Origin: an uncultured Actinomycetes bacterium
GTDB taxonomy: Bacteria; Actinomycetota; Thermoleophilia; Gaiellales; F1-60-MAGs149
Length of the DNA stretch: 64,000 nucleotides
Assembly: GCA_963779685.1 (NCBI GenBank)
Contig: CAVZZG010000003.1
Location: 1,095,382 to 1,159,381 of the forward strand
Reading direction: 5' to 3'
The stretch's first letter is position 1; each line of letters starts with the position of its first letter. The translations under genes and the position numbers were made by a program. This document shows positions 1,846 to 30,558 of this stretch, piece by piece. The notes under the pieces were generated by a model, which worked only from the letters and a program-made list of their open reading frames with translations, was not told where the DNA came from and ran no database searches.

Positions 1846-3540
1846 TTAACGCCGGGGGAGGGCGCGGCGGTAGAGGCCGACGAGTGGGGCCGGGAGGTCG
1901 ACGAGCGACTCCGCGGTGAGGGTCACGAGGGCCGCCAGCGGCAGGTCGCGGCGCTGCTCGAAGGCCGCGAAGCGCGGCTCCCAGGCCGGGAAGAACTTGC
2001 GGTTGAAGTCCAGCAGGCGCTCGACCTGGAAGTAGCGGTCGGCGCGTCCGAGGCACCACTTCAGGCCGTGTTCCCACCGCGCCAGGTCGCCATCCTCGCT
2101 CCGCAGCAGCTCGCCGAAGGCGTTGAAGTTCAGCGACACGCGCTCGATGCCGTGCTCGCGACCCCAGGCGAAGGCAGCGGCGAGCAGGTACTCCATCATC
2201 CCGTTCGGCGTCTCAGGCAGGCGCCGCATCGCGGACAGTGAGAGCGCATGGGCCATCGGCACCGGCACGAAGTGGATGAACCCGTGCGGCCGTCCGTCGC
2301 TGCCGAGCGCGATCACGAACACCGCCGATCCGTGCTCCTCGGCCCAGAGATCGTCCATCGCCATCGAGAAGCCGCGCTCGGGCTGCCCTCCCAGCCACAG
2401 CCGTGACACCCGCAGCAGCCCGGACAGCAGCTCCGGCGTCAACTCCGACCGGCGCAGCACCAGCGACGTGTACCCGGCCTTCTCGGCCCGCGTCACCGAT
2501 TGGCGGACCTTGCGGATGGGCCGCCCCTCCAGCGTGAAGGTCCGGGGATCGACGATCGCCTCGTCGCCGATGTACATCGTCCGCAGCCCGGCCGCCTCGT
2601 AGGCTGGGAGGTGCGACTGACCAACGCCGATCGCCGCCACGCGCCAGTCGTGGCGGCGCGCGAACTCGCGGAAGTCGGCCAGCAGCGGCTGGCAGCAGCC
2701 CGGCGGGCCGATCGGGTCGCCGGAGATCAGCGCGACGCCGCCGGCGACCCGGTAGGCCACCACGGCGGTCCGCCGATCGCTGAAGAAGTAGTCCTTGTCG
2801 CGTCGCAACGCGAAGTAGTCGAGCGTGTCCGAGCCGGCCGTCTCCACCAGGTACCGCGCGTCGGCGCGATCGACCGCGTGGCGCTGCAGGTACTGGCGCC
2901 GTGGCTTCAGCCACAGGAATGCCAGCCAGGCCGCGGCGGCGATGGTGTACACGACGATGGCTCTCGGCACGGCATGCGCGCCACGACCCTGGAGCCGGTC
3001 CGGCCCGAGCCCGACGACCGAGTGCAGGAACTCGGACACCCACTGGATCGGTGACAGCGCGTCGCCCATGAGCAGCGACTGGCCCTCGATCAGCAGCAGC
3101 CCGAGCAGGACGAGTCCGGCGAGGGCGGCGAGGGCGTGGCGGCGGAACGTCGCCGGCGTCTCGGGATCGCCCGGCACGTCGAAGGCGTCGCGGTAGAGCA
3201 CGAGGCCACCGAGCAGGAGCAGCGACGCCGCGGCCTCCTCGATGTCGAGGCCCTTGGCGAGGTGCAGCAGGGCGACGCCGCTGAGCATGCCCACGGCCGC
3301 CTGCCATGCGCGGCGGCGGCGACGGTGCAGGCCGCCTGCGACGATCAGCAGGGTCACCGAGAGGGCGAGCGTCAGGGCTGCGGCGATGGCCGCCAGGCCG
3401 GACGGGATCACCGACGCGACCAGTTCGGAGCGGTCGCGGAGCGCCGGCGTCAGGGCCGAGACGATGCCCACCAGCGCGACGACCGCGAGCCCGATCGAGA
3501 GCAGCCGGACGGCGAGCGTATGGCGCGACCCCGGCGGCAT
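1846..3540 (-). CDS. phosphatidylglycerol lysyltransferase (MprF/LysX-like, DUF2156)
   Basis: TM N-terminus, DTLDYFALRRDK, SGDPIG, ERGFSM, NGMMEYL, FNRKF.PAWEPR. Confidence 0.85.
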   Translation of the reverse strand: MPPGSRHTLAVRLLSIGLAVVALVGIVSALTPALRDRSELVASVIPSGLAAIAAALTLALSVTLLIVAGGLHRRRRRAWQAAVGMLSGVALLHLAKGLDIEEAAASLLLLGGLVLYRDAFDVPGDPETPATFRRHALAALAGLVLLGLLLIEGQSLLMGDALSPIQWVSEFLHSVVGLGPDRLQGRGAHAVPRAIVVYTIAAAAWLAFLWLKPRRQYLQRHAVDRADARYLVETAGSDTLDYFALRRDKDYFFSDRRTAVVAYRVAGGVALISGDPIGPPGCCQPLLADFREFARRHDWRVAAIGVGQSHLPAYEAAGLRTMYIGDEAIVDPRTFTLEGRPIRKVRQSVTRAEKAGYTSLVLRRSELTPELLSGLLRVSRLWLGGQPERGFSMAMDDLWAEEHGSAVFVIALGSDGRPHGFIHFVPVPMAHALSLSAMRRLPETPNGMMEYLLAAAFAWGREHGIERVSLNFNAFGELLRSEDGDLARWEHGLKWCLGRADRYFQVERLLDFNRKFFPAWEPRFAAFEQRRDLPLAALVTLTAESLVDLPAPLVGLYRRALPRR

Positions 3541-9378: not shown

Positions 9379-10286
9379 ACGCGCAGGAACTTGCGCATCG
9401 TCAGCCCGGAGCCGGCGGCCCCGAGCGCGATGCCGGCGACGATCAGGAGGGCCGAGATCTGCCAGAACGCGAGCGCCGACGCGGAGTTCGACGTGGACAC
9501 CCCGTCACCGCTGAGCCAGCCGGAGAGGGCCTCGTACGACAGGAACAGCGCGATCACCGCGCCGATCGAGCCGGCCAGGCCGCAGATCATGCCCTCGAAC
9601 ATGAAGGGCCAGCGCACGAACCAGTTGGTGGCGCCGACGAGCTTCATCACCTCGACCTCGCGCCGGCGGGCGAAGATCGAGAGCCGGATCGTGTTGCCGA
9701 TCAGCAGCACCGCGGCGACGGCGAGCACGATCGCGACGGTCGCGATCACGGCCTCGATGATGCCGGCCGTGCGGATCACCTTGTCGGAGACCGTCGAGCC
9801 GTAGTCGGGGTTCGGCATGTCGTGGGCCGGGTCGGACTTGAGCAGGCCGTCCATCCCCGCGATCGACTTGGCGACCGTGGCGGTGTTGTCGGCGTTGGCG
9901 GCCTTGACCTCGAACCGGGCCTGGAACGGGTTGATCCCGCCGATCTGCTTGAGGGCGTCGCCGTAGCGCTTCTTCGCCTCCTGATAGGCGTCGTCCTTGG
10001 TGAAGAAGCGGACCGAGGACTGGTTGATGCGCGGGTCCTCGCGCAGCTGCTTCTCGATCGCGAGCGTCTGCGCCCGGGTCGCGGTGTCGTCGATCCAGAT
10101 CTTGATCGTCACGTCGTGCTTGGCCGACGACGTGAAGCTGATCATGTAGCTGCCGAGCGCGGCCCCGATGCCCATCAGGAAGAGCACGACGAGCACGGTC
10201 ACCACGGCCGCCAGGGTGGTCGCGAAGTTGTTGCGCAGCGACCGGATGGCCTCGGTGAAGAAGAAGTTGACGCGGTTCCGGCCCAC
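9375..10286 (-). CDS. ftsX: cell division permease FtsX
   Basis: NTIRLSIFARRREVEVMKLVGATNWFVRWPF. Confidence 0.95.
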   Translation of the reverse strand: MGRNRVNFFFTEAIRSLRNNFATTLAAVVTVLVVLFLMGIGAALGSYMISFTSSAKHDVTIKIWIDDTATRAQTLAIEKQLREDPRINQSSVRFFTKDDAYQEAKKRYGDALKQIGGINPFQARFEVKAANADNTATVAKSIAGMDGLLKSDPAHDMPNPDYGSTVSDKVIRTAGIIEAVIATVAIVLAVAAVLLIGNTIRLSIFARRREVEVMKLVGATNWFVRWPFMFEGMICGLAGSIGAVIALFLSYEALSGWLSGDGVSTSNSASALAFWQISALLIVAGIALGAAGSGLTMRKFLRV

Positions 10287-22467: not shown

Positions 22468-22722
22468 AGAGCTGATTTCAGGATGAGGGTCGTGGTCGCG
22501 GGTCGGGGAGCGAGCGGCAGCGACCGGGCGTTCCGCAGGCCTTGCCGACGCAAGGCCAAGGGACGCACGACGCTGCCGCGAAGCCCTTGAAGCCGCCTCT
22601 CCGAGGCGGCGGAAGGGAGCCGAAGCTGATCACGGTTGCCGGAGCCTCGGCTCCGGCGTTCGTGGTCAGCGCAGGACTCTCCCCGGCCATGCGAACGCGC
22701 CGCTCAATCTGAAATCAGCTCT
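22468..22722. mobile_element. MITE-like element with 20-bp terminal inverted repeats
   Basis: AGAGCTGATTTCAGGATGAG (22468) matches the reverse complement of 22703-22722 at 18/20; it sits between convergent genes. Confidence 0.6.
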
Positions 22723-23204
22723 TAGTGGCCGATGAGGTTGCTCTTGACGAGCGCCACGACGAGGCCCGACGCGAGCACCACGGCGGCCGCGACCAACGCA
22801 GGGCCTCTCGCACGGCCCGCCGCGCGCGCCGCCCAGTAGCCTGAGGCGCCGATGAACACCGCCGGCACCACGGCCGCCGCCCGCAGGTTGCCGTCGCTGA
22901 GGACGATCGGAACGCTGCAGAGCAGCGAGACCGCGCCCGCGGCGGCGACCTGAGCGACGCCGATCCGCGCGTCCTGGCGGCCGATGCGCCCGCCGCCGAC
23001 GCCCCGCGCGACCACGCCGAACGCGAACCAGTGGGCGAGGGATAGGCCGACCGCGGTGCCCCAGACGAGCTCGAGCAGTGCGGTTTCCTGAATGTGGACG
23101 TCGCCGCCCCGGAGCGCGGCCATCTCGGCGAGTTCGACGATCGAGATGTACAGCGTCATGGTGACGGCCTCTTGCCAGACCTCGCCATATTTCGCCGTCG
23201 CCAC
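22722..23204 (-). CDS. small integral membrane protein
   Basis: Several hydrophobic segments; start uncertain. Confidence 0.65.
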   Translation of the reverse strand: MATAKYGEVWQEAVTMTLYISIVELAEMAALRGGDVHIQETALLELVWGTAVGLSLAHWFAFGVVARGVGGGRIGRQDARIGVAQVAAAGAVSLLCSVPIVLSDGNLRAAAVVPAVFIGASGYWAARAAGRARGPALVAAAVVLASGLVVALVKSNLIGH

Positions 23205-23329
23205 CGCGCGATGATACCCGCCGAACCGGGAATGCTCGCGAGACGAGCACCGCGCCCGGCGCTTACCAAAGCAGGCTGACGCCCGCGGAGGCGTCCCGCG
23301 AGCCCTCGGGCCCACGGGACGCTTCCACG

Positions 23330-24997
23330 TTAGAGATCGCCACGGGCGAAGCCCGCGATCACCTCCGGGGCGGAGGTGTCGAAGCCGACGACGTCGAGCA
23401 TGCCGGCGTCGTTCGGATCGGCGATCGTGAAGCGGTTCGCGACCATGCCGACCACGACCAGCTTCGCCGGGATGCCGGTCGCCTGGCGGTAGCGGCGGAG
23501 CGCCTCGGCCGGGTGGATGTCACCCGCCCAGGTCTCGGAGTCGGTGTAGATCACGAACGTGTCGACCGCCCGGCCCAGCCGCCGCGCGTAGCGCATCGGG
23601 CAGCGAGCAGTCGGTGGCGCCGAACGGCAGGTCCGACACGGTCTTGACCACGTCGTTCAGCCGCTGCCGGGCCGACATCGCCAGCGGCGTCAGACCCGTC
23701 GGGCCCCAGCCGCGCGCGGCCCGAGCCCGCCCGCCAGCCGCCCCGGCCGGCGTGGAAGCCCACCACCTCGGCGTCCGGGTCGGACGCCAGCGTGACGAGC
23801 GCCATCGCGGCCGACGCCACCCGCGGCGTCAGGCCCGGAGCACGCCGCGACCATGCCCATCTCCATCGAGCCCGAGACGTCGAGCGCCAGCAGGAGACGG
23901 GCTGCCGGTCGGCGTGACGTTCGGGAACGCCAGGTAGAAGGCGCGGTCGAGGGCGTCGACGAGCCGCGCCACCGGCACCCACGTGTGCTGGCCGCGGAGA
24001 CCACGGCCGGCCGCGTACGTGCGCTGGGCCACGAGCAGGGCGATCGGGTGCAGCCGGGCCCGCCGGATCCGGTCGCGGATCGCCAGCTCGCGCCTGCACC
24101 GTGCGGACCGCGTCGGAACCCGGCGCGAGCAGGCCGACCCGGGTCATCGTCGCGAGGTTCCGCACCATGGCCGTCATCGGCATGTCCTCGAGCAGGGCCT
24201 CCCACACCGACGGGGCCGTGAGGTGCTCCGGCTGGAGCGCCTCGCGCGGCAGCCGGTACTCGGCGCACGAGCGCCGCCGACTCCGCCGGCGATCCCGCCC
24301 GCTGTGCGCGGACGAAGCCCTCGACGATCCGCGGCAGGTCCTCGGCCATCGTGCCGCGGACGATCCACTCGAACAGGCGCGCCTGCTCGGGCGACACCCG
24401 AAGCGTCGGGTTGCCGGCCGAGACGGCGGCCGCCGGGTGGGCCAGCCGCAGCACGTCGCGGTGCGTCATGCCCTCGCGCTGGCGGTACTTGACCGCCTGG
24501 TAGGCGAGCTCGTCGACGCCGCGACCGGCGTACCAGCGAGCCCACCGCCCGGCGAAGGGCACGACCCCAGCCGCGCCAGCCGTCGACGTAGCCGACGAAC
24601 TGGAACAGGTGCGTCGCCGTGCGGGCGACCTGCGGCAGCGCCCGCAGCGCCGCCTGGCGGGTGGCCAGGTCGGACGCCGAGGCCGCGCGGGCCAGGGCGA
24701 ACACCGCCGGGTCGTTGCTCGGCGCGCGGCCTGCCTGCGAGACCGCCACGATCTCGGCCACCGTGCGCGGGCCGTCTGCGGCCAGGCAAGCGTCGAGCGC
24801 GTCGGCGTTCTCGAGCGTCAGGCGCCGCTCGCCGGCGTAGAACGAGCCACCCTCGGAGCCCAGGATCAGGAACCGGCGCAGCCGCGTCCACTCGTCGGCC
24901 GAAAGACGAAGCCTCCGGCCGAGTTGCGCACCTGGTCGGCGCGGATGGACTCCCGCTGGTGCGGGGTGCGCTTCGCGAAGCGCGTGAGGTAGGACAT
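23330..24997 (-). CDS. rsr: Ro60/TROVE-domain RNA-binding protein with C-terminal vWA (about 8 frameshifts)
   Basis: Segments in changing frames: QVRNSAGGFVF, RLRRFLILGSEGGSFY, RTATHLFQF, QAVKYRQREG.THRDVLRLAHP, MPMTAMVRNL, RLHP, ALDVSGSM, GATDCSLP, YTDSETW, VVGFDTSAP. RBS GGAAAGGAGG. Confidence 0.9.
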
Positions 24998-25043
24998 GGC
25001 GAACCCTCCTTTCCGGGGCTCGGGGTTGGACGTGCGATGGAGA

Positions 25044-25170
25044 GGCGCGGTCGTGGTGCGCAACTGGCGGTAGGCGCTCTACCGATTGAGCTACGAGGCC
25101 AAGGCCCCGGCAGGACTCGAACCTGCAACCTCCGCACTGAAGCGGTAACCAGCTTGCTCCGGCCCGCGCC
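25044..25170 (-). ncRNA. yrlA: YrlA-type Y RNA (tRNA mimic)
   Basis: Terminal stem GGCGCGG/CCGCGCC with GCCGGAG and CACGA. Internal T-arm GCAGGTTCGAGTCCTGC, loop-closed acceptor CGGGGCC-TT-GGCCTCG, then D-arm TAGCTCAATCGGTAGAGC. Lies between rtcB and rsr. Confidence 0.88.
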
Positions 25171-25186
25171 GGGTCGTTCGGGTCGT

Positions 25187-26631
25187 TCAGTCTTCGGGCT
25201 TCTCGCCGCCGTCGGCCATGCGGACGATCCGTGGCCGGAAGCGGGCGACGATCTCGACGAGATCGGTCTGGCGACCCATCACCTCGTCGATGTCCTTGTA
25301 GGCGAACGGGTTCTCGTCGATGCCGGCCGCCAGCAGCCGGACGCCCCGCTCCCGAAGCAGCGGCTGGACGTCCTTCCAGGTGAACCGCCGCCGGGCCTCG
25401 GTGCGACTCATCGCCCGGCCGGCGCCGTGGGAGGCCGACTCGAGGCTCTCGGCCGAGCCGAGACCGCGGACGACGAAGCCGGGGGCGGCCATCGAGCCCG
25501 GGATCACCCCGAGCACGCCGGCCCCGGCGGGCGTCGCGCCCTTGCGGTGCACGACCACGTCGCGGTCGTCGTGCCGCTCGCGCCAGGCGAAGTTGTGGTG
25601 GTTCTCGACCCCGGCCAGCGCCTCCGCCTTGAGCGACCGGACGACGTTGCGGTGGATCACCTCGTGGCTGGCCGCCGCGTAGTCGCCCATCAGCTCCATC
25701 GCCGCCCAGTACTCCTGGCCCGCCTCGTGATCGAGGTCGAGCCAGGCGAGGTAGGCGAGCTCCTTCGGCAGCTCCGGGTGCAGGCCGCGGGCGACCTTGG
25801 TGTAGTGGTTGGCGACGGCCGCACCAGCGCCGCGGCTGCCCGAGTGGGACAGCAGGGCGAGGTAGCGGCCGGCATCGAGGCCGAGCCCGGCCTCCGCGAG
25901 CTCGAGCTCGCCGAACTCGACGAAGTGGTTGCCGGAGCCGGACGTGCCGAGCTGGGTCGCCGCCTTGTCGCGCAACGTGCGGGTGAGCCCGGTGACGCCC
26001 CAGCATCGGCGTCCATGACCTCGTGGTCGTTCGGCCGGGCAGCCGTCGCGCCGGTGCCGAACACGGTCTGCTTCAGCAGCGCGCGCTCGAGCGTCTCCGG
26101 CGCCGTGTCGATCATCCCCGGGTCGAGGTCGAGCACCGTCAGCCTCATCCGGCAGGCGATGTCGACGCCGACGGCGTAGGGGATGACCGTGCCCTCGGTG
26201 GCGAGCACGCCGCCGATCGGCAGGCCGTAGCCGAGGTGGGCGTCCGGCATCAGCGCGCCGCGGACGGCGCTCGGCAGCCGAGCGGCGTTGCGCATCTGGT
26301 CGACGGCCAGGCGCTCGTCGGGATCGCACCAGACCGCGAAGGGCGCGGGGGCCGGCCGATCATGGAAGACCGGCTCGGTGGCCTCGGCCACGAGACGCGC
26401 CGCGACCGCGCCGAACTGGGCGTGATCGACGTTGCCGGCCGGATCGGCCAGCACGGCGCTCAGCTGATCCAGCGCCGCCTGCCGGCCGAGGCGCTTGACC
26501 GCGCCGGGCAGGATGCGCATGACGTCGCCGAACACCGGGCCCTCCGGCAGGCCGAGCGCACGGAGCTCATCGCCCCGCACTGGCCGGTTTGCCTTGCCGT
26601 CCGCCACGGACGCACGATAGGCGCGACCCAT
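25187..26631 (-). CDS. rtcB: RtcB RNA ligase with N-terminal extension (one frameshift near 26005)
   Basis: MPDAHLGYGLPIGG, VGVDIAC, LGTSGSGNHFVE, SHSGSRG, HHNFA, HRKGAT, PGSM, SHGAGR, AYKDI. Confidence 0.93.
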
Positions 26632-26656
26632 TCGAACACCTCCTTTCTGTCGTTGA

Positions 26657-26729
26657 CTCGCCCGGCTGGATTCGAACCAGCGACCCCGTCCTCCGCAAGG
26701 ACGTGCCCTCTCCACTGGGCTACGGGCGA
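26657..26729 (-). tRNA. tRNA-Arg(GCG)
   Basis: TCGCCCG/CGGGCGA acceptor; anticodon loop TT-GCG-GA; T-loop TTCGAAT. Confidence 0.88.
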
Positions 26730-26734
26730 TCGAG

Positions 26735-26808
26735 TACGCCTGGCACGATTCGAACGTGCGACCTGGTGGGCCGGAACCACCCGCTCATGTCCACTGAGCT
26801 ACAGGCGT
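26735..26808 (-). tRNA. tRNA-Arg(CCG)
   Basis: ACGCCTG/CAGGCGT acceptor; loop TT-CCG-GC. Confidence 0.9.
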
Positions 26809-26816
26809 GCGTGAGG

Positions 26817-26888
26817 TGGAGCACCAGGGATTCGAACCCCGATCCCGGGTTTAAGAGACCCTTGCTCTGGCCGTTGAGCTAGTGCTCC
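26817..26888 (-). tRNA. tRNA-Lys(CTT)
   Basis: GGAGCAC/GTGCTCC acceptor; loop CT-CTT-AA. Confidence 0.87.
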
Positions 26889-26895
26889 GTGAAGG

Positions 26896-26967
26896 CGATC
26901 CAGAAGGGATTCGAACCCTCGCCTTCCCGCTCGACAGGCGGGCGCTCTACCGTTGAGCTACTGGACC
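26896..26967 (-). tRNA. tRNA-Asp(GTC)
   Basis: GGTCCAG/CTGGATC acceptor; loop CT-GTC-GA; G73. Confidence 0.9.
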
Positions 26968-26971
26968 GGGA

Positions 26972-27043
26972 TGCTACGGGCTGGAGTCGAACCAGCGCCC
27001 TCCGGGTTTCAACCGGATGCTCTTCCTGCTGAGCTACCGCAGC
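26972..27043 (-). tRNA. tRNA-Phe(GAA)
   Basis: GCTGCGG/CCGTAGC acceptor; loop TT-GAA-AC. Confidence 0.9.
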
Positions 27044-27056
27044 GCGGGTGCCGTGA

Positions 27057-27128
27057 AGCTGCGGGCCGGGATCGAACCGGCCTCATCCGGTTGGCGGCCG
27101 GACGCTCTGCCTGATGAGCTACCGCAGC
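27057..27128 (-). tRNA. tRNA-Gly(GCC), C33
   Basis: GCTGCGG/CCGCAGC acceptor; loop CC-GCC-AA; U73. Confidence 0.85.
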
Positions 27129-27133
27129 GTGCA

Positions 27134-27206
27134 TGGCTGGAGCAGGACTCGAACCTGCGATCAACCGGTTATGAGCCGGCTGCTCTTGCCGCTGAGCCAT
27201 CCAGCC
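27134..27206 (-). tRNA. tRNA-CAT (elongator Met or Ile2)
   Basis: GGCTGGA/TCCAGCC acceptor; loop CT-CAT-AA. Confidence 0.88.
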
Positions 27207-27210
27207 GGGA

Positions 27211-27283
27211 TAGGCGACCAACGAGTCGAACGTTGCTCTCCGGCGTATCAGACCGGTGTCTTCAACCGATGGACCAGTCGCCT
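27211..27283 (-). tRNA. tRNA-Ile(GAT)
   Basis: AGGCGAC/GTCGCCT acceptor; loop CT-GAT-AC. Confidence 0.85.
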
Positions 27284-27292
27284 GGGCGGAAG

Positions 27293-27366
27293 TGGACGAG
27301 GAGGGCATCGAACCCCCGATCTCCTCTTTGTAAGAGAGGCGCTCTACCAAGCTGAACCACTCGTCC
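27293..27366 (-). tRNA. tRNA-Val(TAC)
   Basis: GGACGAG/CTCGTCC acceptor; loop CT-TAC-AA. Confidence 0.9.
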
Positions 27367-27372
27367 GTGGAG

Positions 27373-27444
27373 ATCCAGGGGGAGGGGTCGAACCTCCGCC
27401 TCCGCGTTCAGAGCGCGGCCACCTGCCATTAGTAGGACCCTGGA
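27373..27444 (-). tRNA. tRNA-Gln(CTG)
   Basis: U1-A72 acceptor TCCAGGG/CCCTGGA; loop CT-CTG-AA. Confidence 0.85.
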
Positions 27445-27515
27445 AGCCGAGTGCAGGAGTCGAACCTGCGTCTGCCGTTTACGAGACGGCAGCTCTCCCC
27501 TTGAGCTAACCCGGC
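27445..27515 (-). tRNA. tRNA-Thr(CGT)
   Basis: GCCGGGT/ACTCGGC acceptor; loop CT-CGT-AA. Confidence 0.9.
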
Positions 27516-27566
27516 GAGTCGTGTTGTCGCGTTCAGCTAGCCGGAACTCCGTTGGGAGTTCCGGCA

Positions 27567-27638
27567 TGGAGCCGAGGGGAATCGAACCCCTGACCCTCTC
27601 CTTGCGAGGGAGGTGCCCGGCCATCGGGCGACAGCCCC
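27567..27638 (-). tRNA. tRNA-Ala(CGC)
   Basis: GGGGCTG/CGGCTCC with G3:U70; loop CT-CGC-AA. Confidence 0.9.
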
Positions 27639-27652
27639 GTGCTACGGGCCGA

Positions 27653-27726
27653 GGTGGCCTGTGGGACTCGAACCCACTGACGCCGGGTTCACAACCCGGA
27701 CCCTCGTCCGCTTCGGGATAGGCCAC
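27653..27726 (-). tRNA. tRNA-His(GTG)
   Basis: GTGGCCT/AGGCCAC acceptor, C73; loop TT-GTG-AA; irregular 8/9 junction. Confidence 0.8.
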
Positions 27727-27728
27727 AG

Positions 27729-27803
27729 CTCGTACGCCAGGCCTCGAACCTGGACCCCGCCGGGTAACAGCCGGCTGCTCTACCGCGATTGAGCTACGTA
27801 CGA
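27729..27803 (-). tRNA. tRNA-Asn(GTT)
   Basis: TCGTACG/CGTACGA acceptor; loop CT-GTT-AC; G73. Confidence 0.88.
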
Positions 27804-27876
27804 CACCTGCGCAAGGATTCGAACCCTGACTTGACCGGGTTGGAGCCGGCCGTGCTCGCCGTTACACCACACAGGT
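27804..27876 (-). tRNA. tRNA-Trp(CCA)
   Basis: ACCTGTG/CGCAGGT acceptor; loop CT-CCA-AC; G73. Confidence 0.87.
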
Positions 27877-27881
27877 ACGGA

Positions 27882-27955
27882 TGACGCCCCTGGGATTCGA
27901 ACCCAGACCGATCCGGGTCTGGGCCGGATTCCTCTGCCAGTTGGGATAGAGCGCC
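27882..27955 (-). tRNA. tRNA-Leu(CAG), short variable loop, C33
   Basis: GGCGCTC/GGGCGTC acceptor; Leu-like D-loop; loop CC-CAG-AC; 5-nt variable region; A73. Confidence 0.8.
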
Positions 27956-27968
27956 GTGGAAGACGAGG

Positions 27969-28052
27969 TCGAGGGAGCGGGAGTCGAACCCGCACAGCCC
28001 GTGGGCACCGGTTTTACAGACCGCTGGGCTCGCCCGTGCCCGGTGTCCCTCG
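27969..28052 (-). tRNA. tRNA-Tyr(GTA)
   Basis: CGAGGGA/TCCCTCG acceptor; loop CT-GTA-AA; long variable arm. Confidence 0.8.
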
Positions 28053-28057
28053 ATGAA

Positions 28058-28147
28058 TGGAGGAGAGCTGGCGAGTCGAACGCCCGGGCCAGTGACCCGT
28101 CACGCCGGCTTTCGAGGCCGGTTGGCCCCCGCGGGCCGAAACTCTCC
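28058..28147 (-). tRNA. tRNA-Ser(CGA), non-canonical fold, encoded CCA
   Basis: GGAGAGTT/AGCTCTCC; loop CT-CGA-AA; long variable arm; ends TCCA. Confidence 0.8.
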
Positions 28148-28154
28148 GTGCGAG

Positions 28155-28227
28155 CGGCTCTGGCGGGAATCGAACCCGATCGTCGCGAGGTTGAGGGCCT
28201 CGCATCCTGCCATTAGACGACAGAGCC
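28155..28227 (-). tRNA. tRNA-Glu(CTC), C33
   Basis: GGCTCTG/CAGAGCC acceptor; loop CC-CTC-AA; G73. Confidence 0.83.
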
Positions 28228-28238
28228 TGGGTTGGAAT

Positions 28239-28321
28239 GCTGCGGTCGTGGGGCACGGCCCGGTGCGAGTCGGATTCGAACCGAATGAGCGCCAGATAAC
28301 CGGGCCGACTCGGCCCGCAGC
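28239..28321 (-). ncRNA. Y RNA-like gene with a T-arm only
   Basis: GCTGCGG-GCCGAG...CACGA-CCGCAGC terminal motif as in YrlA; 9-bp CGGCCCGGT/ACCGGGCCG stem; TCGG-TTCGAAT-CCGA hairpin. Confidence 0.75.
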
Positions 28322-28328
28322 GAGTGGA

Positions 28329-28402
28329 TCTGGCCGGCAGGAGTCGAACCTGCGGTCTCCGGCGCCCGAAGCCGGTGGGGTGGCCGGCTCCCCTACAGCC
28401 AG
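28329..28402 (-). tRNA. tRNA-Pro(CGG)
   Basis: C1-G72 CTGGCTG/CGGCCAG; loop TT-CGG-GC; A73. Confidence 0.9.
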
Positions 28403-28415
28403 GTAGGTGCGGAGC

Positions 28416-28490
28416 TGCGCGGTCGTGTCGTCCCGACCGGGTGTGGGTTTCGATGTGCAGTTCGAGAACCGGAAGGGTCCGGCCCGCGCA
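28416..28490 (-). ncRNA. Y RNA-like gene without tRNA-like arms
   Basis: TGCGCGG-GCCGGA...CACGA-CCGCGCA terminal motif; inner CCC/GGG and CCGG/CCGG pairing around a large loop. Confidence 0.65.
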
Positions 28491-28499
28491 TCTCCGGCA

Positions 28500-28572
28500 T
28501 GGCGCGGGCAGGAGTCGAACCTGCTCTCTCGAGCTCATGAAGCTCGCGGGATCCCCGTTTCCCCACCGCGCG
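28500..28572 (-). tRNA. initiator-like tRNA-fMet(CAT)
   Basis: CGCGCGG/CCGCGCC with C1xC72 mismatch; loop TT-CAT-GA. Confidence 0.83.
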
Positions 28573-28864
28573 TTGCGTGTGCCTCTGTCGGTCGGGCCGT
28601 TGGGCCAGACGTCCTGTTCATGCCACTCGCCCACCCTTCGACCCTGGATCGCCAAGACGGCGTCCTCCGTGGAGGGGTGCTGGAGCCCGGAGCCTCAAGA
28701 TCTGTCATGTGTCAGGGCACGCTGACGCACATCTGCCACATGACAGATGGCTATGACATCTCGAGAGGGCCTTTCTCTCTCGGGCGGGGCCTCGATGGTT
28801 GAATTGACTTCTTCAAGATGGGCGGCTCACTGGTTGGGATTGGACGAGCGACTGGTGGAGGACG

Positions 28865-28892
28865 AAAAAGGCGACCGCTTCGGGTCGCCTTC
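28865..28892 (-). terminator. intrinsic terminator (putative attenuator)
   Basis: AAGGCGACC-CGAAGC-GGTCGCC followed by TTTTT. Confidence 0.75.
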
Positions 28893-28919
28893 GCGTCGAA
28901 CCGGGATGCAGCCAGGGAT

Positions 28920-29030
28920 CTAGCGTGCATTCCTCCCGACGCGGAGGCTTGTGGGTGCGTAGGCGCGATCGAGCCACAGACTCGGTCGGCCTTCGGCAGA
29001 ACATGGATCGATTGCGTGGAACAACATCAC
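28920..29030 (-). CDS. putative leader peptide (36 aa)
   Basis: GTG ATG TTG...CGC TAG = MMLFHAIDPCSAEGRPSLWLDRAYAPTSLRVGRNAR. Starts at the predicted TSS; its 3' end overlaps the antiterminator strand. Confidence 0.5.
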   Translation of the reverse strand: MMLFHAIDPCSAEGRPSLWLDRAYAPTSLRVGRNAR

Positions 29031-29037
29031 GGGTCTC

Positions 29038-29066
29038 ACCTTACACGGTGGAGCGGACGGATGCAA
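29038..29066 (-). promoter_or_regulatory. sigma70-type promoter for the leader/tRNA array
   Basis: TTGCAT (29066-29061), 17-nt spacer, TAAGGT (29043-29038). Confidence 0.6.
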
Positions 29067-30558
29067 GTGCTACTTGACAATTCGTCGGTGCCGAACGTGA
29101 CCCCGCATACGCGTGTAGCCAACTCTCGAGCGCGAGCAACTGCCACAACTTCATCCCACGACGGCCCGTGGGGACATCCGGATCGAGGAGCCGCTCGAGG
29201 TACTCGCGCCGGATCAGACCGCGCGGCGCCAGGCCGTCCAGCAGGCGCTCGCGCGCGTAGCGGGACAGCGAACCGGTCAGCCACCCCGTGACGGGCACCC
29301 GCATGCCCGACTTGGGGCGATCGATCACCGCGTCGGGCACCAGCCCACGCGCGACCTGCTTCAGCACGTGCTTCTCCGTCGTCCCGTGGAGCCGCAACGA
29401 CGCCGGCAGTGACGCCGCGAGCTCGGCGACCGCACGGTCGAACAGCGGCGATGCGGGCACGACGCTTGCAGCCGCACCCAGGTGCTCGACCTTGGGCAGG
29501 ATGTGGCTGGCGCCCTTGAGGGTGATGTTGGCCGCCATCAGGCGGCCCACCAGCGTCGGCCACCGGTTGTCCGAGAGCATCGGTTGCAGCTCCGCCGCGA
29601 GACCGCCCGCGTGGGCGGCCAGCTCGGGCTCGAGCATCGTCTGCAGGTCCGCGTAGCAGCGGCGATGCGCGAGGAGGTAGGCCTCCGCCCGCTCCTGGCC
29701 GTACAGGTCAGCGGCCAGCATCGGCAGGTTCTTCGGTCCGCCGAAGCAGGGGTCGCCGCCCTCCCCGTTCAGCAGCACCGGCACGCCCACCTCGGCGAAG
29801 AGCCTTGCATTCGGCACGGTCAGCGGGTCGCCGTTGGGCGACGACAGCGACGCCATGGTCGAGTCGAGCCGTTCGACCACGTCGCGCGGCCCGACCTCGA
29901 CAACGTGGTGCTGTCCGCCCAGGTGGCCGGCGACGAGCCGCGCGTACTCCAGCTCGTTCGGGTACTCGGGCCCGAAGGAGAGCGACCACAGCACCGGGCG
30001 TTCCCCCTGGGCGAACGCGAGCGCCGCTACCAGACTCGAATCGATGCCGCCGGACAGGCTCGCCGCGCCGGCCCAGACGGCCCGTCGAGACACGGCACCG
30101 GCCAGGGCCTGGCGAAGCCGCGCGACCGCCTCGGGCTCTTCGATCTGCCGCTCGGCGGGGAGCGACCAGAACCGCCGGCTCGTCACGTGGCGGCCGTCGT
30201 AGACCACCTCCTCCCCGGGCCGCACCGATCGCACGCCGTCGAGCAGCGTCCGGGGCGCGGGCACGTAGCTGTAGGAGAGGTAGGCGGCGAGCGCCTCCGG
30301 ATCGATGGCGGGGTCATCCGCCAGGTCGCGCGAGCGGGTCGAGAACCGGAGACCGCCGTCAACCAGGGAGTAGAAGAGACTGCAGGCGCCGACGGCGTCG
30401 CGCGCGAGGTGGATCGTGCCCGCCGCGTCGCGCCACGCCATGGCGAAGCCACCATCCACCTCGCCGAGTGCCCCGGCGGCGATGGCCCGCTCCCACGATC
30501 GCCCCTGGCCGGGCGATGTCCACGGCTCCGTGGCGAGAAGGAGCACCTCAGCCGTCAT
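29041..30558 (-). CDS. asparagine synthetase-like ATP-dependent amide ligase
   Basis: LARDAVG, SLSGGIDSS, LNGEGGD, EKHVLK, RPKSG; no N-terminal catalytic Cys. Confidence 0.8.
   Translation of the reverse strand: MTAEVLLLATEPWTSPGQGRSWERAIAAGALGEVDGGFAMAWRDAAGTIHLARDAVGACSLFYSLVDGGLRFSTRSRDLADDPAIDPEALAAYLSYSYVPAPRTLLDGVRSVRPGEEVVYDGRHVTSRRFWSLPAERQIEEPEAVARLRQALAGAVSRRAVWAGAASLSGGIDSSLVAALAFAQGERPVLWSLSFGPEYPNELEYARLVAGHLGGQHHVVEVGPRDVVERLDSTMASLSSPNGDPLTVPNARLFAEVGVPVLLNGEGGDPCFGGPKNLPMLAADLYGQERAEAYLLAHRRCYADLQTMLEPELAAHAGGLAAELQPMLSDNRWPTLVGRLMAANITLKGASHILPKVEHLGAAASVVPASPLFDRAVAELAASLPASLRLHGTTEKHVLKQVARGLVPDAVIDRPKSGMRVPVTGWLTGSLSRYARERLLDGLAPRGLIRREYLERLLDPDVPTGRRGMKLWQLLALESWLHAYAGSRSAPTNCQVALASVRSTV

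Follow-up and report, generated by a model that had tools for sequence, protein, structure and literature searches.

The DNA analysed here is a 64-kb stretch from the genome of an uncultured Actinomycetes bacterium (the window, in whose positions all coordinates are given), and our subject is a 5.3-kb segment of it in which three small RNA genes, named Y1, Y2 and Y3, accompany an array of transfer RNA (tRNA) genes, the RNA ligase gene rtcB and rsr, the gene for the Ro60/TROVE protein. By their sequence, Y1, Y2 and Y3 are paralogous Y RNA-type genes of a known kind, which share one handle and carry three different distal modules. We read the whole segment as an island that combines a 21-tRNA array, rtcB, rsr and three handle-bearing Y RNAs, of which Y2 and Y3 would be co-processed with the tRNAs, and we assign this reading a probability of about 0.7.

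Organization of the island

The genes of the island lie on the minus strand and, read in the direction of transcription, have the order tRNA-Met, Y3, tRNA-Pro, Y2, 19 tRNAs, rtcB, Y1 and rsr. The array begins with tRNA-Met(cat) at 28500..28572 (ARAGORN; Rfam tRNA, 53.7 bits), which does not encode CCA and whose trailer begins with U. Next come Y3, a 75-nt Y RNA-type gene at 28416..28490, and Y2, an 83-nt gene of the same type at 28239..28321, separated from each other by tRNA-Pro(cgg) at 28329..28402 (ARAGORN and Rfam); R1, a covariance model of the handle family, scores them at 53.8 and 64.9 bits, respectively. Directly after Y2 stands tRNA-Glu (28154-28227), with which the 19 further tRNA genes, from Glu to Arg, begin (26657..28227; ARAGORN and Rfam). 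The gene rtcB (RNA 3'-phosphate ligase) occupies 25187..26631 and was recognized from open reading frames and from Pfam RtcB matches of 218 and 70 bits on two pieces. Y1, a 127-nt YrlA-type Y RNA at 25044..25170 (46.5 bits with Rfam RF02553, 78.1 bits with R1), starts 16 nt past the rtcB stop and ends 46 nt before the ATG of rsr, which lies at 23330..24997 and was identified by Pfam TROVE matches on three pieces, a frame plot and a frameshift-aware alignment. An earlier note on this DNA had proposed three Y RNAs with 7-bp stems ending in GCGG, followed by GCCG(G)A and closed by CACGA-CCGC, two of them between tRNAs. The motifs stand exactly at the positions that it gave, on the minus strand, and ARAGORN places Y3 between tRNA-Met and tRNA-Pro and Y2 between tRNA-Pro and tRNA-Glu.

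The array packs 21 same-strand tRNA genes into 1916 nt and is the sole cluster of three or more tRNA genes in a genome with 86 tRNAs in total. All 21 anticodons also occur elsewhere in the genome, in 1-5 copies each. Long tRNA arrays (L-arrays) are defined by at least 20 tRNA genes, at a density of at least 2 per kb, in the same orientation and supernumerary to the genome, and the array has each of these properties; it fits the horizontally spread L-arrays. Since the flanking housekeeping genes are intact (three F420-biosynthesis genes, a PNPOx-like gene, an asparagine-synthase-like (asnB-like) gene and a Ser/Thr kinase gene), the 5.3-kb stretch looks like an RNA-repair island inserted between them. 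The 4.26-Mb genome has TROVE at this single locus, and a search of 40 relatives gave no TROVE match. A direct-repeat search for insertion borders or attachment (att) repeats gave only tRNA-derived repeats, and a search of phage DNA with the whole island returned distant rtcB and tRNA matches only, with no close phage relative.

The spacing of the embedded RNAs is that of the array itself. Y3 lies 9 nt from tRNA-Met and 13 nt from tRNA-Pro, and Y2 lies 7 nt from tRNA-Pro and 11 nt from tRNA-Glu; these spacers of 7-13 nt are like those between the tRNA genes, which measure 0-14 nt except for one 51-nt gap. This 51-nt spacer (27516-27566, between tRNA-Ala and tRNA-Thr) contains a perfect 10-bp hairpin, CCGGAACUCC/GGAGUUCCGG, with a 4-nt loop and no U-tail. 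Y2 and Y3 stand 3.2-3.5 kb upstream of rsr and, like Y1, they lie on the rsr strand and within 4 kb of rsr, which are the limits set for Y RNA candidates by Chen et al. 2014 (RNA 20:1715, PMC4201824).

One handle with three distal modules

The terminal stem is paired at all seven positions in each RNA: GGCGCGG/CCGCGCC in Y1, GCUGCGG/CCGCAGC in Y2 and UGCGCGG/CCGCGCA in Y3, with the common pattern NNNGCGG/CCGCNNN. After the 5' stem strand, Y1 and Y3 read GCCGGA and Y2 reads GCCGAG (overall GCCGRR); CACGA precedes the 3' stem strand in all three. In addition, we found a shared block that the earlier note did not contain, CYGGUUAYC, whose CYGG forms a second helix in all three RNAs with a CCRG that stands about 9 nt ahead of CACGA; in Y2 this helix has 8 bp (GGCCCGGU/ACCGGGCC). 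The handle can be described as a 7-bp closing stem, a bulged GCCGRR opposite CACGA, and the second helix. As judged from these motifs, the handle appears to resemble a Ro-binding element; its 3' half, CACGACC or GACC, we take to be like the other strand of the vertebrate Ro-site helix. The 5' motif is close to the GNCGAAN0-1G motif of Chen et al. 2014, from which Y1 (GCCGGAG), Y2 (GCCGAGU) and Y3 (GCCGGAC) depart at one or two positions each, and the exact GCCGAAG is present in the homologues L014c, L025c and L039b. According to the authors of that motif, it resembles the vertebrate Ro site GGUCCGA (PMC4201824).

In the array, tRNA-Gly(gcc) (27057-27128) and tRNA-Phe(gaa) (26972-27043) have GCUGCGG as the 5' strand of the acceptor stem, which is also the 5' stem strand of Y2 (28315-28321), and the stems of Y1 and Y3 are similar to the stem of the first tRNA-Met. 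The 3' strand of the Y1 handle (25045-25065) is 81% complementary over 21 nt, 10 nt of them perfect, to rsr codons ~19-25 (24922-24942). In DNA so rich in G+C this match may have arisen by chance, or it may reflect an alternative pairing through which the folding of Y1 is linked to the translation of rsr.

Beyond the handle, the three RNAs differ. Y1 aligns to positions 23-89 of the Rfam YrlA family (RF02553), which cover the T-arm, a closed acceptor-like hairpin and the D-arm, in agreement with the permuted tRNA mimic seen in the earlier note; the Y1 handle lies outside the aligned part. This permuted tRNA-like module belongs to Y1 only. Y2 has the T-arm only (UCGG-UUCGAAU-CCGA), and Y3 has neither T-arm nor D-arm. 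The earlier note likewise gave Y2 only a T-arm, and it gave Y3 only a large loop; Y3 does contain a small inner hairpin and the second helix. Binding of Ro and tethering of effectors by Y1-Y3 are putative functions, suggested by position and by analogy.

Related loci and covariation

A 115-aa intact piece of the window Rsr was used as the query for related loci, and of the 29 loci obtained 9 are from genomes, 3 are viral contigs and 17 are contigs of metagenomes. The genomes concerned are those of Solirubrobacter soli, metagenome-assembled genomes (MAGs) of Solirubrobacteraceae and Actinomycetes, a Capsulimonadaceae MAG and alphaproteobacterial MAGs. In the locus of S. soli DSM 22325 (L013), which belongs to a cultured strain, tRNA-Arg is followed by elements at 9707-9795 and 9806-9887. 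In most of the related loci, the 5' core GCCG...GGUUAYC occurs in 2 to ~8 copies just upstream of rsr. In the Capsulimonadaceae MAG (L011:8800-9870), we observed at least 7 cores of the form GCCG...GGUUAUC in the ~1 kb upstream of rsr; some of these elements have split T-arm and D-arm parts, their 3' motif is UUGCC, and only 4 are matched by R1 at E ≤ 0.1.

The earlier note had suggested a covariance model of the terminal motif as a check and had named lack of covariation as the outcome that would count against its idea; the handle does covary in the homologues. The outer stem was tested without selecting on the outer stem itself: for each 5' core, the first downstream GACCG was taken, and the three bases before GCGG were compared with the bases that follow GACCG. 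Among the window and the 29 loci there are 64 5' cores, 44 of which have GACCG 40-260 nt downstream, and these give 36 unique elements. The outer three positions are fully complementary in 26 of the 36, whereas 2000 shuffles of the partners gave 4.0 on average and never more than 10; eight different outer triplets are seen. Among the 10 failures, 2 have one terminal mismatch and 8 come from other clades with a 3' motif other than GACCG. The second helix varies in a similar way: in a MAFFT alignment of 24 elements (A2), the pair 20-146 is C-G in 15, U-A in 3, U-G in 2 and another combination in 4. With R1, 62 matches were found in the 356,374 bases of the window and the 29 loci, all on the rsr strand, and 59 of them lie within ~1 kb upstream of rsr; the exceptions are Y2 and Y3 of the window and one weak match in L039. 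In the 52 distinct R1 rows, 93.7% of the cells pair (72.3% when shuffled and 25-40% when slid) and both sides change in 11 of the 15 pairs, in an alignment that was fitted to the model. Matches outside the training set were obtained at L027:2726-2865 (84.9 bits), L024:2401-2471, L033:3204-3274 and L032:132-230, and the matches in mycobacteriophage ET08 described below are likewise from outside that set.

The three classes (full mimic, T-arm only and armless) also recur, in L014, in L025, in the group L012/L024/L027/L030 and in mycobacteriophage ET08. The combination of one handle with several modules is therefore not new, and the suggestion that the embedded forms are uncatalogued classes was too strong. 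It holds insofar as no Rfam family covers Y2 and Y3, but a T-arm-only RNA (YrlB) and hairpin types are already described in the relevant passages of Chen et al. 2014.

Specificity of the handle

Short motifs say little here. In the 72% G+C DNA of the window, two bare 9-mers have 20 and 7 matches, compared with 14.3 and 3.7 expected, and are not rare; a gapped pattern has 7 matches in the genome compared with 6 for its reversed control; and a loose regular expression gives 6 matches in the window, 3 of which are unrelated. Single-sequence folding lends weak support, with z-scores of -0.87, -2.22 and -2.60 for the set of Y1, Y2 and Y3. Because the short motifs are near chance and the single folds unremarkable, the case rests on the comparison with other loci.

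The full handle, in contrast with the bare motifs, is specific. R1 matches only Y1, Y2 and Y3, both in the window at E ≤ 0.1 and in the whole 4.26-Mb genome at E ≤ 1, where 150 of 11437 first-look candidates were scored, and the remaining 18 spacers of the array contain nothing handle-like. In 4 of 5 other whole genomes, matches were confined to the rsr-adjacent training elements. Among other genomes of the phylum, 2 of 150 were matched, and three of the four loci concerned adjoin rsr. The other match, L045 (G128:C105:152261-152395; 61 bits), has no rsr within its 3.1-kb locus, and an rsr-linked pair stands on another contig of the same genome; this match is perhaps an orphan Y RNA, perhaps a second locus.

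Comparison with known systems

That several Y RNAs can share a Ro handle is already known from Chen et al. 2014, whose account of Mycobacterium smegmatis gives YrlB as a second Y RNA with a possible T-arm only and includes hairpin-type Y RNAs as well (PMC4201824). The window resembles the M. smegmatis YrlA/YrlB pair, as presented there, in several features. Both have at least two Y RNAs upstream of rsr and on its strand (in M. smegmatis from one precursor), and both combine one full T-arm/acceptor/D-arm mimic with a possible T-arm-only RNA. Moreover, M. smegmatis YrlA is reported to be cut by RNase P and to receive CCA, so that tRNA enzymes act on YrlA there (PMC4201824). The likeness of Y2 and Y3 to YrlB is drawn from the published description of YrlB (PMC4201824). 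Unlike the M. smegmatis RNAs, Y2 and Y3 are split from rsr by 19 tRNA genes and rtcB and are flanked by tRNAs, and the GNCGAA-like 5' motif reads GCCGGA or GCCGAG. In addition, both strands of the handle are conserved here, whereas the passages of Chen et al. 2014 on the Salmonella and M. smegmatis RNAs recognize the 5' strand only. The survey in that paper, according to its description, discarded matches that overlapped tandem tRNAs and sought the tRNA-like form alone (PMC4201824).

The Salmonella rsr-yrlBA-rtcBA operon, which carries the YrlA of RF02553, is similar in that the Y1 module aligns to its YrlA and rsr and rtcB are neighbours; against RF02553 itself, Y1 stays at 46.5 bits where the cut-off is 69, its handle is unaligned, and Y2 and Y3 are unmatched. 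Mycobacteriophage ET08, which the legend of Fig. 1D in Chen et al. 2014 names as a YrlA host (PMC4201824), has three R1 elements (51, 39 and 23 bits) with one shared handle directly upstream of its Ro-like gene: a 75-nt armless element, a 146-nt full YrlA (Rfam 37.4 bits) and a 72-nt armless element. Its handle sequence is different (CAG-GCCGA ... CAUGU-CUG), and its nearest annotated tRNAs lie ~2.4 kb upstream.

As for the array, the L-arrays of Santamaria-Gomez et al. 2021 (PMC8421152) provide the closest parallel, with a supernumerary cluster like the 21 tRNAs here and rtcB adjoining; in cyanobacteria, rtcB is reported there to be both a neighbour of the long arrays and co-regulated with them. 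Non-coding RNAs inside Mycobacterium arrays are also on record, namely transfer-messenger RNA (tmRNA) and a 430-nt structured RNA (PMC8421152; PMC4758250; PMC5966550). Unlike the window, the arrays treated in the main texts of PMC8421152, PMC4758250 (Tran 2015) and PMC5966550 (Morgado, Vicente 2018) come without mention of Y RNA, Ro60 or TROVE. We found no published description of Y RNAs inside tRNA arrays, in a search that was thin on subscription journals and supplements. The newer part of the present observation is, accordingly, that Y RNAs stand 2-13 nt from tRNA genes and are interleaved with an L-array and rtcB, an arrangement that we did not find in print.

Proposed release of the embedded RNAs

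The close spacing to tRNA genes is repeated elsewhere. A tRNA ends 2-7 nt ahead of the first Y RNA in 10 of the 29 related loci; in L014, whose elements are identical in L029, two Y RNAs stand between tRNAs as in the window, and in L039 rtcB lies between the tRNAs and the Y RNAs, also as in the window. The Streptomyces phage Sham has a Ro-like gene in a tRNA cluster, with a weak YrlA match (35 bits) that starts 12 nt past its tRNA-Asp. This match, at 3008-3125 of locus L044, is located between tRNA-Asp and tRNA-Ser. At L044:4074-4177 of the same phage, a weak R1 match with a T-arm and GGUUAUC encloses a 62-nt gene annotated as 'tRNA-Ser(cga)', which may instead be a Y-like RNA. The association of Y RNAs with tRNAs holds for a subset only, since the rsr-linked elements of the phylum sample have no tRNA within 1.5 kb.

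The tight spacing of 2-13 nt suggests that Y2 and Y3 are released by tRNA-end processing. The 86 tRNAs of the genome all lack an encoded CCA behind the discriminator, and their trailers all begin with a base other than C; in the array, U is the next base after 20 of the 21 tRNAs. RNase Z is described as cutting directly after the discriminator and as inhibited by a C at this place (PMC7479834), and in M. smegmatis YrlA and YrlB are reported to derive from one precursor, with YrlA cut by RNase P (PMC4201824). By analogy, the array would be transcribed as one precursor, which RNase Z would cleave behind the discriminator of the upstream tRNA and RNase P where the downstream tRNA begins. Y2 and Y3 would then be freed with short tails, which exonucleases could trim to the stem, and Rsr might bind the handle and stabilise both RNAs. 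The differing distal modules could give the Ro60 particle differing partners, as was proposed for YrlA and YrlB. Cleavage of the Y RNA stem itself as a tRNA-like minihelix was also considered and dropped; the 3' flanks of the homologues show no common trailer.

Weighing the evidence

Several points speak against our reading of the island as a working array of tRNAs and Y RNAs with rtcB and rsr. The Rfam search that the earlier note had asked for gave a mixed result: Y1 matches YrlA with 46.5 bits (E 1.9e-8 for 3.8 kb), below the gathering cut-off of 69 bits, and Y2 and Y3 match no family at E ≤ 10. Folds constrained to the family consensus are 3.8-8.1 kcal/mol worse than the single-sequence minimum-energy folds. 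Most rows of the training alignment had been chosen because their stem was fully paired, so that the 99% pairing of the first stem there is a matter of construction. A simple scan of 22600-29100 for sigma-70-type promoter sites and for terminators found nothing that looks like either, and the single transcript is for this reason an assumption. In a related strain from a sediment DNA run, 73 nt (28405-28477) that cover most of Y3 are replaced by 98 nt of other sequence, which shows that Y3 is not strictly conserved. The most serious point concerns the genes: as assembled, rsr has 8 frame changes (seven +1 and one -1, by the frameshift-aware alignment) and rtcB has one, near 26000. The idea of one Ro protein served by three RNAs therefore carries the caveat that the sole rsr of the genome is the one with the 8 frame changes; if these are real, the Y RNAs are orphaned and have lost their partner. 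A general assembly fault, which would excuse them, is countered by the intact rpoB, rpoC and flanking genes; this is not a generally poor assembly.

The state of rsr was examined by a frame plot, a windowed scan and the frameshift-aware alignment, and tblastn of the intact Rsr on the window gives overlapping matches in several frames. Set against an intact orthologue, the gene is of full length and collinear, with 405 identical codons among the 544 aligned (74%), and no in-frame stop is found in the frame-corrected rsr. RNase Z should be needed in this genome because none of the 86 tRNAs encodes CCA, and the best candidate for it (G000:C3:390793-391678) is likewise in two pieces in different frames, with 169 and 108 bits; it was named with TIGR02651, Pfam Lactamase_B_2 being too generic. 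A split in a gene that is probably essential hints at sporadic assembly frameshifts, and strain differences within the island could spoil the consensus. The frame changes in rsr and rtcB are either real pseudogenes or local consensus error.

These frame changes lead to the rival that Y2 and Y3 are functionless leftovers of duplicated YrlA genes whose tRNA-like modules were deleted, with rsr and rtcB as pseudogenes. The related loci offer such a course of events. In a group of closely related 20-tRNA loci, the second Y RNA is an armless 71-nt element in three (L012:9788-9858, L024:2401-2471 and L033:3204-3274), and a full YrlA of ~140 nt, with nearly the same ends, stands at the same position in L027:2726-2865 and L030:769-909. 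The armless elements look like clean deletion derivatives of full YrlA, which is compatible with decay, as is the replacement of most of Y3 in the related strain. Against this rival stand the perfectly paired stems of Y1, Y2 and Y3 and the handle itself, which 52 distinct sequences preserve through compensatory changes. Several lineages, phage ET08 included, have T-arm-only and armless classes again, and a corrected rsr with no stop and 74% identity to its orthologue is unlike the product of long decay. We consider this explanation unlikely.

A second rival takes Y2 and Y3 for structured spacers of a tRNA operon (processing or stability signals, or attenuators) rather than Ro60 ligands. Their distance of 7-13 nt from tRNA genes would suit such a role, as would their lack of an Rfam match and the 5' strand of Y2, which is that of the acceptor stems of tRNA-Gly(gcc) and tRNA-Phe. 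The handle, however, is confined to rsr loci in six whole genomes and the phylum sample, it occurs upstream of rsr with no tRNA nearby in L016-L019, L034, L037 and L046-L048, and the other 18 spacers of the array lack it, which makes this explanation very improbable. Finally, chance likeness of G+C-rich words in 72% G+C DNA would account for bare motifs near chance frequency but not for a full handle that covaries and is restricted to rsr loci; we judge this explanation already refuted.

Meaning of the arrangement

The arrangement of Y RNAs, L-array and rtcB yields a concrete biogenesis hypothesis that can be tested. To our knowledge, very few experiments have been done on bacterial Y RNAs, and their biogenesis has barely been studied. 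If the reading of the island as a co-processed array is true, Y RNA genes spaced like tRNA genes would mean that tRNA-end enzymes make the partners of Ro60. Spare tRNA arrays, the RtcB ligase and Ro60 are tied together here and in related loci. Annotation pipelines overlook these RNAs, none of the three being above the Rfam cut-off. If the frame changes in rsr are real, the locus would instead illustrate the decay of such an island.

More broadly, mobile long tRNA arrays of actinobacteria and their phages might regularly carry Y RNA genes as cargo that RNase Z and RNase P excise together with the tRNAs, and the array, RtcB and Ro60 with its Y RNAs might form one transferable cassette of phage origin. 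We put this forward tentatively, as an idea with somewhat less than even odds. If it is true, the answer to tRNA damage would consist of spare tRNAs, a ligase that reseals, and Ro60/Y particles that clear the rest, and each Y RNA module would select a different partner.

Other features of the region

A search of sequencing runs listed one DNA run with a small share of the words and no RNA run. The sediment DNA run contains short contigs of related strains, and 85 nt (27030-27114) with the greater part of tRNA-Gly(gcc) are skipped in contigs of a related strain there; strains differ in this island. A 468-nt gap precedes the first tRNA and contains an inverted repeat at 28700..28748 (16 nt, 94% complementary, 17 nt apart) located 128 nt upstream of that tRNA; from its sequence and place, it is a possible operator of the tRNA array. 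Another inverted repeat (22468-22722; 41 nt, 76% complementary, with the ends AGAGCUGAUUUCAG and CUGAAAUCAGCUCU) flanks 173 nt about 0.6 kb downstream of rsr. At 1-88, the edge of the window cuts through a tmRNA gene of the minus strand, of which the 5' part is present (Rfam, 47.8 bits).

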